In this document: positions 12,767 to 16,639 of the stretch, piece by piece
Layout: each line of letters begins with the position of its first letter
Position numbering within the stretch: the stretch's first letter is position 1
Position numbers and translations under genes: made by a program
Source of the DNA: a virus
IMG/VR virus record: IMGVR_UViG_3300000292_000030
Location: 1 to 39,684 of that record
Reading direction: 5' to 3' (one strand)
Length of the DNA stretch: 39,684 nt
Notes under the pieces: generated by a model
Told to the model about the DNA's origin: nothing
The model's input: only the letters and a program-made list of their open reading frames with translations
The model's database searches: none

Positions 12767-15700
12767 TTGATTAAGTATGATTATGAAATAACTGTAAATG
12801 GAAATACAGCAAAATTAAATAAAGACATACATTTATTTAGAGAAAATAAGAATGTTCATTATTATTTTGCTATAAAAAATGCTTCTTTTAATTTTAAAGG
12901 GAGTACAGATTTAATCGAAAAAACAAACGCAATAAACGCAGCAGTAACAGTTATAAAACCGAATGGAGTAGAGGTAGCAAATGCTATAGCTCCAGTAGAA
13001 AATGGTAAAATACACCTAAAGGTAACAGAAGATCTAATCGATGAAGAAGTAGAAGTTGGAGATTTTGATTTAGTGTTCGACTTATTTGACGATGTTGACG
13101 GAGCAGTAACAATTCCAAAAGTAATAGGACAATTCCATGTACTAGAAAGACCATGCACAACTCCCATTTCCGAATTGGTAGCAACTAACACAACAAATGA
13201 AGTAGACCAGGCTCTAACGGATTATGCTATTGTTACTTATGCAGAGCCTGTAGCTTCTACAAATGCAGACGGAACTTTTGCTAAAAAAACATGGGTAGCA
13301 AAAGAAAAAATTACAACAGCAGAGTTAAACAGAATGGAAGAAGGTATAAGCGATGTTAGTTCGCAATGTAAAGATATTGCGAAACAAGTAGGTACAGAAA
13401 CATTAAACACAACAGCACAAGATTTAAAAGGCGCAATAAATGAGGTTTTTCAATTAGTTGCTAAAATATTAGGCTCAACTGTAAAAATTAATTCATTAAG
13501 TAAATTATCTGATTGTAAGTTTAAATTAATTTCTTCTACATCTAATGCGAGTTATAATTCAACAACTGAAGCTGGTAAAAATTACAATGATGACTCTTGG
13601 GATAACATATCTATACCACACGATTGGAGTATATATAATTCATTTAATTCTAATTCTCCTTCAGGATATGAAGGTGGATATTTAGATGGGGGAGATGCTT
13701 GGTATAGATTTAAATTAAAAACTGCTAAATTAGAAGGGCAAAAAGTATATATTTATTTCGATGGGATTTATATGGAAAGTGATGTATATATCAATGGAAC
13801 AAAAGTTAAAAGTAATAAATGGTATAATCCTTTCTATGTAGAAATAACTGATTACGTACAATATAATAACAATGATACATTAGCAGTATTTGTTAGAAAT
13901 CAACAACCTAGCTCAAGATGGTATAGTGGAAGTGGTATAATCAGAAATGCTTATTTAGTATCTGCAAATGATGTTGAAATAGGAATAAACGATATTAATA
14001 TAACAACTCCGACACTAGAAACTGATGTAAAAACAAATATTGCAAATACAAAAATAGATATAAAAATTAACTCAACTACAGTTAAGACAATAAATTTAAT
14101 AAATGAAATATATTTTAATAATTCTTTAGTAGAATCAAATACAAAAGAAGTAGCTTTAAGTATTGGAGATAATTCAATTTCTGAGTATATACAAATAAAT
14201 AATCCTTCTTTATGGGATGAATATAATGGTAATTTATATACGTTGAAAACTTATATAAAAATAGGTGTAGAAACTTATTATTCTACCGAAACTAAATATG
14301 GATATAGATATTTTAAATTTGATAAAGATACTGGATTTTGGCTTAATGGTAAAAATCTTAAATTAAGAGGTGTATGTATGCACCATGATTTAGGTTGTTT
14401 GGGGGCTGAAGTTAATAAATCTGCAATAGAGAGACAAATTGATTTACTAATAGATATGGGGGTTAATGCAATTAGAATCACTCACAACCCAGGAAGTTCT
14501 GAATTTTTAAATGTTTGTGCTAAAAAGGGTATTTTAACTATAGAAGAAATGTTCGACTGTTGGGCCACTGCTAAAAAAACATATGATTTTGCTAGATATT
14601 ATAATACTTATGCAAAAGACGTTATAAAAACCACAATAGAGAGAGATAAAAACAACCCTTCAATAATCATGTGGTCAATAGGAAATGAAATAGTTAATGA
14701 ATCTGATGTAATGACTCGTGAGTTAGTTACATGGGTAAAAGAAGTAGATACTGAAAGGATGGTTACAATGGGGGAAAATTATCCTACACAATCAACACAT
14801 CAAAATTGTATGAAATATTTAGATGTTGTTGGTGTTAATTATGGTAATTCATCAGTATATTCTTCTGTTAGAACTGCTATGCCTAATAAACCTATTTATG
14901 GCTCTGAAACAACTTCAGCTTTGTCATCCAGAGGTATTTATACTAAAGATGATAAAAATAAACAATGCCCTAGTTTTGACGATTTCACAGTAAGTTGGGG
15001 AAGCTATGCAAGTGATGCACTTAAACTACATATAGATGATATTAATTATTTAGCAGGTATGTTTGTATGGACTGGATTTGATTATATAGGAGAACCTACT
15101 CCATTCAATGCTTACCCTAGTAAATCTAGTTATTTTGGGATTTATGATACTTGTGGATTTCCAAAAGATATAATGTATATGTATCAATCAAGATGGGCTA
15201 CATCTCCAATGATTCATATATTACCACATTGGGATTGGACAGATGGAAATATAAAAGTGTGGTTATATTCAAATTGTTATAAGGTAGAATTATTTTTAAA
15301 TGGTGTAAGTTTAGGTGAAAAATTACAAACTAACATAGGTAATAAATATCAATTTGAATATTCTGTTACTTATACAAAAGGTACTTTAGTTGCTAATGGA
15401 TATAATCAAAATGGTGATATTATAGCACAGGATATAATATATACTTCTCAAGGTACTCCAACAACAACTAAATTATCTAGTGATAAAACAAATGTCAATA
15501 TAAATTCAGACGATTTGATATTTATAACTTGTGATTTAGTAGATAAAAACGGAGTGGTTGTACCAACAGCAAATAATAAAATTACTTTCACGGTAGAAGG
15601 TGGAATAATTATAGGTACAGATAATGGTGATGCTACTTGTGTTGAAAAATATAGAACAAATATAAAATCAGCATTTAACGGAAAAGTTTTGTGTGTTGTA

Positions 15701-16639
15701 AAACATAATGGGGTAAGTGGAAATATGATTATAAAAGCAAATGGTGATAATTTAACAGAACAATCGATAACTATAATCAAGGGAGATAAAACAGTTTTAA
15801 AACAAAAAACTAAGCAAAATTTTATAGATGCTACAAATCCAACTATATATGATTATCCTGGAGTTATTAAAAAATATACTATAACAAATAATTTAACTAA
15901 TTGTGTAAATTCAAATACAATAACTACAATAGAAGAAAATGGTAGCTATTCAGGTACTATAACTGCCAAAAATCTATATACATTAAATAATATAACAGTT
16001 ACTATGGGAGGAACAGATATAACAAATACATCAGTTTCACATGGAGTAATAACAATTAATTCTGTTACTGGAGATATAGTAATAACCGCTAATGCAATTA
16101 TTACAGATAATGATAAATTAGTATATTCGTTACCTCAAACAACTACATTTAATGGCATAAGTGATTATATAGATACTGGAGTACAATTATTTGATACTGA
16201 TAAAGATTTTACTGTATTTTTAGATTTTATGAATGGTGAAGGCAATGTAGATGTTAAGCAAAACACAATTCTTCATTGTATGAAAGAACAAAACCCTTAT
16301 TATGGATTATCTATTAGACCTCTTACATCAACAGAACATATAAAAGTTGATTATTATGGAAACGTTGACCTAGATAGTATTATTATTAGTAAACCTACTA
16401 AATTAATAATAACACATACAAAAACTAGTAATACCATAAATCTTTATTCTAATAATAATGTTACTGGTATAGAGTTGTCAGCTACTTTAACATATCATGC
16501 AATAACTCAAAATATAATATTAGGTGCTTATCAAGATGTAAATGGTAATAAAGGAAGATATTGGAATGGAACAATAAATCAATGTAAAATATGGTTCGGC
16601 GCATTAACAAATGATGACATAAATACATTATTAAATTAA
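12767..16639 (+). CDS. receptor-binding / baseplate protein: BppU-like N-terminus + glycoside hydrolase family 2 module + C-terminal LamG-like domain
   Basis: TTG start behind AAAGGGGA. GH2 motifs: [90 protein letters not shown]...[15 protein letters not shown]. The C-terminus ends [31 protein letters not shown]. Confidence 0.8.
   Translation: [1290 protein letters not shown]

Follow-up and report, generated by a model that had tools for sequence, protein, structure and literature searches.

To our knowledge, the enzymes found on phage tails are almost entirely endo-acting beta-helix depolymerases, sialidases and esterases, and most were described in phages that infect Gram-negative pathogens. 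The classical tailspike is a trimer of beta-helices. Here we describe a candidate tail enzyme of another class, a 1290-amino-acid (aa) protein containing a complete glycoside hydrolase family 2 (GH2) module. It is encoded in a 39,684-nucleotide (nt) stretch of viral DNA, IMG/VR record IMGVR_UViG_3300000292_000030, positions 1 to 39,684, which will be called the window. It spans the whole genome of a temperate siphophage, ~39.7 kb long and with a GC content of 30.7%. We put at roughly 60% the probability that the protein is a virion-borne lectin and exo-beta-galactosidase of the siphophage baseplate, which binds and trims a galactosylated glycan of the host envelope. The gene is:

12767..16639, + strand: whole gene of the 1290-aa tail protein, with anchor, stalk, GH2, immunoglobulin (Ig)-like and lectin-like parts (from the open reading frame (ORF) list and the translation)

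Several described systems resemble parts of this protein. In the baseplate of the lactococcal phage TP901-1, BppU (ORF48; PDB entries 4v96 and 3uh8) has an N-terminal beta-sandwich fold and its gene follows those for Dit and Tal, as is the case here. Unlike the window phage, in which a 1080-aa enzyme-lectin unit is fused to the anchor, TP901-1 has a small, separately encoded receptor-binding protein, and BppU has no detectable sequence similarity to the phage anchor. The BppU and BppL arrangement resembles that of one sister phage (contig L010), which encodes the anchor as a protein of its own (229 aa) and has its distal parts in further genes downstream.

The BgaA protein of Streptococcus pneumoniae (4cu6) resembles the middle of the phage protein. 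The two have in common the five-domain layout with an Ig-like fifth domain, the catalytic pair and the BgaA residues R288, W685, Y713 and E716, and the order of a surface-displayed enzyme followed by carbohydrate-binding modules would also be shared. However, BgaA is a bacterial protein anchored by sortase, its substrate is host N-acetyllactosamine (LacNAc) and its modules are of the CBM71 type, not ConA/CBM40-like, whereas the phage protein has a baseplate anchor and, by eye, no signal peptide. In BgaA, the lectin modules mediate adherence and catalysis antagonises it. The best sequence matches are to BgaD, or beta-Gal II, of Bacillus circulans (4ypj, 7cwd and 8q2h), whose residues E447, E532, H345 and H379 are kept; BgaD, unlike the phage protein, is a secreted metabolic enzyme with transglycosylating activity.

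Two further parallels are more distant. The Klebsiella K57 tailspike enzymes are virion-borne glycosidases (a place that we presume for the phage protein) with an exchangeable N-terminal anchor, and the same catalytic module occurs in unrelated phages. They cut internal bonds and release repeat units, whereas the GH2 TIM barrel of the phage protein would be expected to remove single terminal sugars. Influenza neuraminidase and the O-antigen deacetylase tail fibre of phage G7C combine binding with an enzyme that alters a terminal group of the receptor glycan, with no depolymerisation. The likeness to such receptor-destroying enzymes would be purely functional, and the folds and chemistries differ.

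The GH2 enzyme

The enzyme and its two predicted catalytic residues are encoded as follows:

13574..15778, + strand: GH2 beta-galactosidase region, aa 270-1004, five domains, BgaA/BgaD type
14687..14689, + strand: GAA codon of E641, predicted acid/base (NE motif)
14906..14908, + strand: GAA codon of E714, predicted nucleophile

The original prediction, made from the letters of the DNA, had read aa ~270-1000 as a full GH2 enzyme, and a hidden Markov model search bears this out. Five Pfam GH2 models, all above their curated cut-offs, tile aa 275-1002: Glyco_hydro_2_N (aa 275-399), Glyco_hydro_2 (aa 410-514), Glyco_hydro_2_C, the TIM barrel (aa 520-727), DUF4982 (aa 828-887) and Glyco_hydro2_C5 (aa 902-1002). 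This is the layout of a sugar-binding domain, an Ig-like domain, a TIM barrel, DUF4982 and a C-terminal Ig-like domain 5, and the alignments with PDB sequences run from end to end. In place of the right-handed parallel beta-helix of tailspike depolymerases, the catalytic domain has the TIM barrel of GH2; there was no match to a beta-helix family.

In a phmmer search against PDB sequences, the best matches were 7cwd (E-value 5e-191), 4ypj (BgaD-D, 1e-186) and 4cu6 (BgaA, 4e-142), with 8q2h also among the best. As counted from the alignments, the GH2 region is 47% identical to 7cwd and 42% identical to BgaA 4cu6 over 728 residues. LacZ-type enzymes and beta-glucuronidases score far below the beta-galactosidases in this search. 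Of the galactosyl- or mannosyl-type specificity first proposed, the galactosyl half is supported, with the enzyme placed in the BgaD/BgaA beta-galactosidase subfamily, but the mannosyl half is not; a beta-mannosidase or beta-glucuronidase type was rejected because such relatives score far below the beta-galactosidases.

Both glutamate codons that had been singled out as catalytic do encode glutamate and align with the catalytic pairs of BgaD and BgaA. E641 falls on BgaD E447 and BgaA E564 and is a glutamate in 120 of 120 homologs, and E714 falls on BgaD E532 and BgaA E645 and is a glutamate in 119 of them. The roles of E447 (acid/base) and E532 (nucleophile) in BgaD were proven by mutagenesis, the mutants being inactive. 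The transition-state histidines of BgaD, H345 and H379, have their aligned counterparts in H539 and H573. In the BgaA paper, R288 is described as occupying the place of the magnesium site of LacZ, W685 as stacking against the +1 sugar, and Y713 and E716 as filling the sodium site; E564 and E645 are also named as active-site residues. The counterparts of R288, W685, Y713 and E716 in the phage protein are R384, W744, Y773 and E776. Each of these four residues and each of the two histidines is kept in all 120 homologs, which are just 41-86% identical overall.

In NCBIfam, the beta-galactosidase models GalB (613 bits) and GalA (591 bits) score best, short of the equivalog cut-off of 900 bits; the phage enzyme is related to GalA/GalB but is a different enzyme from those named. 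All of the best NCBIfam matches are named as beta-galactosidase or beta-glucuronidase, one of them as an exo-beta-1,4-galactosidase. Taken together, the alignments describe what appears to be an intact beta-galactosidase-type GH2 of a distinct subfamily, for which activity is predicted.

The enzyme region is under purifying selection. Over 735 codons, its ratio of nonsynonymous to synonymous substitution rates (dN/dS) against one relative (contig L007) is 0.22; with the high-GC relatives L013 and L015, the ratio is saturated and cannot be interpreted. The C-terminal lectin domains of the window protein and of the L007 relative are not homologous, and so a C-terminal dN/dS from this pair would be meaningless.

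Phage receptor-binding proteins often reuse enzyme folds for binding. One might therefore suppose that the GH2 module is mainly a carbohydrate-binding adhesin with its pocket used as a lectin, and that any hydrolysis is incidental or even counter-productive for adsorption. A precedent exists in BgaA, which adheres even when it is inactive or its active site is blocked, and whose adherence is antagonised by catalysis. However, a pure binder would tolerate loss of the nucleophile, whereas here both glutamates, both transition-state histidines and the four further active-site residues are kept in 119 or 120 of the 120 homologs and dN/dS is low. We consider the adhesin explanation to be rather improbable.

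The same residues bear on the mode of cleavage. An endo-acting depolymerase that, like the K57 tailspikes, cleaves internal beta-galactosidic bonds in the backbone of a wall polysaccharide or capsule would fit with the existence of phage depolymerases that hydrolyse beta-galactosidic bonds and with the movement of catalytic modules among unrelated phages with different N-terminal anchors. However, enzymes of the K57 type release repeat-unit oligomers from internal bonds, while the catalytic site of BgaA lies in a pocket, the active-site residues of BgaA are kept here, and the NCBIfam names are those of beta-galactosidases and beta-glucuronidases, including the exo-acting one. Endo-cleavage is, in our opinion, very unlikely.

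A cassette exchanged between phages

The N-terminal ~205 aa of the protein also head a set of short proteins (229-409 aa) on ~40-kb contigs, where they are 94-97% identical. Two sister phages, L009 and L010, have the same tape measure, Dit and Tal as the window. L009 has a 387-aa protein in the slot of the GH2 protein, and L010 has the 229-aa anchor-only protein and then separate genes of 56, 510, 198, 75 and 42 aa. At the DNA level, L010 and the window are 99.3% identical over 2767-13387 and 95-99% identical from 16657 on, with no homology across 13388-16656. The reverse is true of L005, a phage with an unrelated backbone that has an evolved Dit of 664 aa, a Tal of 1443 aa and an extra fibre of 988 aa. 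It matches the window over 13364-16703 at 99.94% identity and has almost nothing else in common with it. The two comparisons define the borders of the exchanged DNA:

13364..13387, + strand: left recombination junction, aa 200-207, in a conserved stalk segment (L010 homology ends at 13387, L005 homology begins at 13364)
16657..16703, + strand: right recombination junction, in an intergenic spacer (L010 homology resumes at 16657, L005 homology ends at 16703)

Thus, aa 208-1290 plus 17 nt are a horizontally exchanged cassette in a slot for distal tail modules. This cassette, which L005 carries at 99.94% identity, has moved recently between unrelated phages. The cassette (13388-16656) has a GC content of 27.5% and is more AT-rich than the genome. 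No PHROGs family was found for the cassette proteins of the sister phages, and a search of PDB sequences returned nothing for the 387-aa and 510-aa proteins. The exchangeable cassette strengthens the case for receptor binding.

The identical 1290-aa protein is present on four public metagenome contigs with two phage backbones, which differ in integrase type (tyrosine or serine), in the holin and in an HNH insertion. The phages are 99.6% identical over the tail region and have different lysogeny modules: the window has a tyrosine integrase at 18880-20007 on the - strand, and L002 has a 508-aa serine recombinase at 9547-11073. A Phage_holin_1 and a Phage_holin_5_2 protein have likewise been swapped (L002 7279-8271 and L003 14373-15365, versus window 17129-17386). 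In L002 and L003, an ORF resembling HNH/NUMOD4 homing endonucleases and a small ribbon-helix-helix (RHH) gene are inserted between holin and endolysin.

These comparisons also bear on the idea that the gene does not encode a functional tail protein, being instead an assembly chimera or a metabolic moron (an auxiliary gene) that stands beside tail genes by chance. Prophage GH2 genes have elsewhere been treated as auxiliary metabolic genes, as in a 2026 soil-prophage study that explicitly set structural proteins aside, and most GH2 matches in the phage database searched are on short, unannotated human fecal contigs. Against this, the frame is continuous with an anchor nearly identical to that of the sister phages, no separate start or signal peptide was noted, and the architecture recurs in several lineages. 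With one protein on four contigs and two backbones, a shared anchor and cassette mosaicism at the DNA level, an artefact or moron is effectively excluded, and we regard it as extremely unlikely.

The ends of the protein

The part of the protein that follows the enzyme has two domains:

15866..16099, + strand: Ig-like beta-sandwich, aa 1034-1111, a ~77-aa unit (AlphaFold2 (AF2) predicted local distance difference test (pLDDT) ~90)
16109..16636, + strand: concanavalin/LamG-like lectin fold, aa 1115-1290, the fastest-diverging part (AF2 model and Foldseek)

The AF2 model of the C-terminal 286 aa has a pLDDT of 82 and consists of the Ig-like sandwich and a jelly roll. In Foldseek, the jelly roll matches the CBM40 domains of the sialidases NanB, NanC, RgNanH and NanJ (1e-7 to 4e-5), with a template modelling (TM) score of up to 0.60 on a stand-alone CBM40, and the lectin-like half of the clostridial neurotoxin binding domains is also among the nearest structures. 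Because these structural matches are just 13-18% identical, the ligand of the lectin cannot be read from the fold. The LamG-like C-terminus that had been proposed is therefore right as to fold, a ConA/CBM40-type jelly roll, but not as to family: the Laminin_G_3 match spans the whole model (aa 1132-1286) and scores 20.4 bits against a cut-off of 27.6 bits, so membership by sequence was rejected. Two homologs, P0172 and P0187, pass this cut-off.

In close relatives, the GH2 core is 79-86% identical and the lectin domain 38-49%. A fast-diverging domain of this kind is the usual signature of a specificity-determining tip, and the lectin domain is predicted to bind carbohydrate; it is its divergence, much faster than that of the enzyme, that leads us to read the tip as the specificity element. 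The ~77-aa Ig-like unit is found in tandem in other proteins, with up to 12 stretches per protein in a representative library. The pair of Ig-like and lectin domains occurs in 3546 representative clusters, where it is joined to CotH, BspA-type leucine-rich repeat (LRR) and phage tail tip domains. A word-indexed homolog search with the lectin domain alone found just six small proteins.

A related lectin domain was also seen in a myophage baseplate module with Baseplate_J and Mu Gp48 (L027, 8001-11531). There, a protein of 280 aa includes a lectin domain with 41% identity to window aa 1113-1290, and the protein after it, 890 aa long, has a domain of family GH30 (Glyco_hydr_30_2). Thus, other CAZy-type hydrolase families seem to occupy tail-fibre positions in phages of gut Firmicutes.

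The part that precedes the enzyme would attach the protein to the baseplate:

12767..13150, + strand: N-terminal beta-sandwich, aa 1-128, BppU_N-like baseplate anchor (AF2 model with pLDDT ~80 over this part; Foldseek)
13151..13573, + strand: stalk/linker, aa 129-269, low-confidence helices and two conserved motifs (model and homolog alignment)

The AF2 model of the N-terminus was built on an alignment of 30 homologs and is confident solely for aa 1-128. Foldseek matched it to the NF5 baseplate (6e-6), to the BppU chains of TP901-1 in 4v96 (7e-6 to 3e-4) and to the isolated BppU N-domain 3uh8 (4e-4, TM 0.63 on the target). Its matches among the viral predicted structures of BFVD carry the names baseplate component, BppU domain protein, collagen-repeat protein, tailspike and hydrolase. 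The gene is directly downstream of those for Dit and Tal, as in BppU-type proteins, and the sister phages keep the same order. The sequence searches came back empty: the N-terminal 270 aa matched nothing in PHROGs or in Pfam, where BppU_N was without a match even at E-values up to 1, a profile of the 30 homologs found no relevant PDB sequence, and tblastn of the 270 aa against phages gave one weak match on an unannotated human fecal contig. Membership of BppU_N by sequence was rejected for want of a match to the family model. With Foldseek and gene order agreeing and sequence searches empty, the BppU-like call in the original prediction is backed by fold and context but not by sequence.

One of the two stalk motifs is aa 181-194 (nt 13307-13348). 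Residues K181, I182, L187, N188, E191, G193 and I194 are invariant or nearly so across the 30 N-terminal homologs, and helices are predicted at 184-188, 197-207 and 217-235.

The gene in its genome

The ORF list, the translation and the PHROGs matches of the tail genes confirm a 1290-aa ORF after Dit and Tal, and all of the peptide blocks quoted in the first description are found in the translation. The start codon is TTG. The neighbouring features are:

4791..8336, + strand: tape measure protein, 1181 aa, which opens the distal tail module (PHROG tape measure families, best E 9e-109)
8349..9107, + strand: Dit distal tail protein, 252 aa (phrog_33 Dit, E 2e-32)
9107..12751, + strand: Tal or tail tip protein, 1214 aa, with a C-terminal extension (phrog_13289, 5e-166; Pfam Prophage_tail; NCBIfam TIGR01665, phage tail spike protein)
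12751..12759, + strand: ribosome-binding site GAAAGGGGA, whose end is 7 nt upstream of the TTG (read from the sequence)
16833..16866, + strand: hairpin and U-run, terminator-like, at the boundary of tail operon and lysis genes (RNA fold -16.1 kcal/mol, z -6.0)

Genes for a scaffold protein, a capsid protein and a tail tube protein come before the tape measure, and the order then is tape measure, Dit, Tal, GH2 protein and lysis genes. After the GH2 gene there is a 240-nt spacer, followed by an XhlA-like protein, a holin, an amidase_3 endolysin and the tyrosine integrase on the opposite strand; the rest of the genome has replication genes, terminase and portal. A scan for consensus terminators found no sites around 16833-16866, despite the strong hairpin on folding. 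The major capsid protein (1045-2034) has the NCBI name N4-gp56 family major capsid protein, and the identical sequence is on 202 contigs.

No cultured phage is close to the window phage. The best matches of the window Tal are the Tal proteins of Clostridioides difficile and Clostridium perfringens siphophages, at 37-41% identity. The host is very probably Intestinibacter bartlettii, because the window capsid protein is identical to WP_138343067.1 of this species, the cluster mates of the endolysin and DnaB derive from it, and a 728-kb contig holds the exact Tal, capsid and portal sequences.

Relatives of the protein

A homolog search gave 120 clusters of proteins of 832-1662 aa, all with the GH2 core and many with a lectin tip. 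Some of the clusters have collagen repeats or Big_2 domains, and there are several distinct N-terminal types. Of 33 N-termini inspected by eye, none was signal-peptide-like and all were fibre-like. The loci fall into two GC classes, ~29-32% and ~56-59%. In L013, the GH2 protein follows tape measure, Tal-like and fibre-like proteins, and in L014 it is on a phage contig. L015 is an integrated prophage with the order tape measure, Dit, Tal, a 55-aa gene, GH2 protein, endolysin and holin and then the host his operon; the HisZ sequence of this host is one that NCBI names Faecalibacterium sp.

Three of the relatives have peculiarities. L013 has a RelB/ParE-type toxin-antitoxin pair on the opposite strand (3362-3921), between the tape measure and the distal tail genes. 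In L008 (9330-10520), the GH2 gene was annotated as a "beta-galactosidase" of 993 aa; upstream, its frame continues open to at least 9968, where no start codon is listed, and a 212-aa ORF in another frame ends at 9968. The gene is that of a full-length tail protein interrupted by a frameshift or a sequencing error. P0017 (1585 aa; NCBI, ENA) has two complete tandem GH2 modules, 43% and 47% identical to the query, and a short N-terminus that is not signal-peptide-like.

Matches elsewhere are few. Neither the gene nor window 1-12766 had a megablast match among 50,697 phage records, the single protein had no relative in a scan of GTDB genomes, and PHROGs has no family for the whole 1290-aa protein. 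The GH2 matches in the phage database are almost all on unannotated human fecal contigs. An alignment-based scan of IMG/VR gave 11 loci, a number that should not be read as an estimate of prevalence because the scan was limited by two peptide patterns. No cultured-phage counterpart was found for a protein with anchor, GH2 and lectin, and in the literature searched we met no description of GH2 in a phage tail or receptor-binding protein.

The gut origin of these phages suggests another target for a virion-borne enzyme. It might act on mammalian or dietary beta-galactosides, such as mucin O-glycans, LacNAc or milk oligosaccharides, and thereby hold the phage in mucus or free galactose near the host, with Tal recognising the bacterium. 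The bacterial hosts live in the gut, and LacNAc or lactose-type compounds are the substrates of the closest characterised relatives of the enzyme. One of these, BgaA, works at the cell surface on host glycans, and its stacking residue W685 is kept here. The tip is similar to CBM40 lectins from sialidases of the gut and airways, and the C-terminal extension of Tal matches host-specificity families. However, the slot of the cassette holds other distal modules in sister phages with the same Tal, as expected of host-range determinants, the lectin tip diverges fast, as receptor-binding tips do, and a fold similarity at 13-18% identity is uninformative on the ligand. We therefore think a mammalian or dietary target unlikely, and equally doubtful is the broader proposal that a virion beta-galactosidase and lectin enable gut phages of Intestinibacter and Faecalibacterium to graze and hold fast in mucus, or to supply their bacterial hosts with sugar. 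If it were true, a structural phage protein would act directly in the mammalian glycan economy.

How the protein may work

An envelope glycan of the bacterium remains the target that we favour. The BppU-like beta-sandwich would dock the protein onto the Dit/Tal hub, and the helical stalk, probably trimeric, would project the distal part outward. The Ig-like and concanavalin-type lectin tip would then recognise a cell-envelope glycan, and the GH2 enzyme would remove terminal beta-linked galactose from the bound glycan or from a neighbouring one. Such trimming could unmask a site for irreversible binding, perhaps by Tal. Alternatively, it could make attachment reversible, so that the virion moves over the surface and escapes from debris. 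What was first suggested, a virion-attached exo-glycosidase that trims a decoration of a wall polysaccharide, capsule or S-layer glycan, holds in part: it is supported by a GH2 module with both glutamates, an anchor-type N-terminus, a lectin-type C-terminus and the position after Dit and Tal.

Several points weigh against this proposal. We infer the trimeric state, the exo-action, the identity of the substrate and the purpose of the trimming, and likewise the presence in the virion. The BppU link comes from a model with a mean pLDDT of 63 and modest TM scores, and has no sequence support. In the alignment, the loop that bears the +1-site residues R484 and K487 of BgaD is missing from the phage protein, and so the linkage preference cannot be read from BgaD. 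Unlike tailspikes, a pocket-shaped exo-acting GH2 cannot cut its way through a polymer, and the benefit of trimming is therefore speculative. Tal, with its long C-terminal extension, could be the true receptor binder.

Significance

Judged by the literature searched, the protein would be a glycosidase and receptor-binding module of the tail whose enzyme class and fold had no earlier link to virions. GH2 is a "metabolic" family in CAZy, and here its pocket-type site, predicted to be exo-acting, is built into the exchangeable host-recognition slot of phages of gut Clostridia. The family of such GH2 proteins is widespread and frequent in gut metagenomes, with more than 100 sequence clusters, and the phages that carry it have hosts from at least two distant groups. 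The sharply bounded cassette, with its conserved junctions, is a natural template for the engineering of receptor-binding modules.

If the proposed function is correct, virome surveys in which GH2 is scored among the auxiliary metabolic genes may be giving structural proteins the wrong label. It would also mean that there is a bind-and-trim mode of adsorption to Gram-positive gut bacteria, and would suggest beta-galactosylated glycans of the envelope as phage receptors in Intestinibacter and Faecalibacterium.

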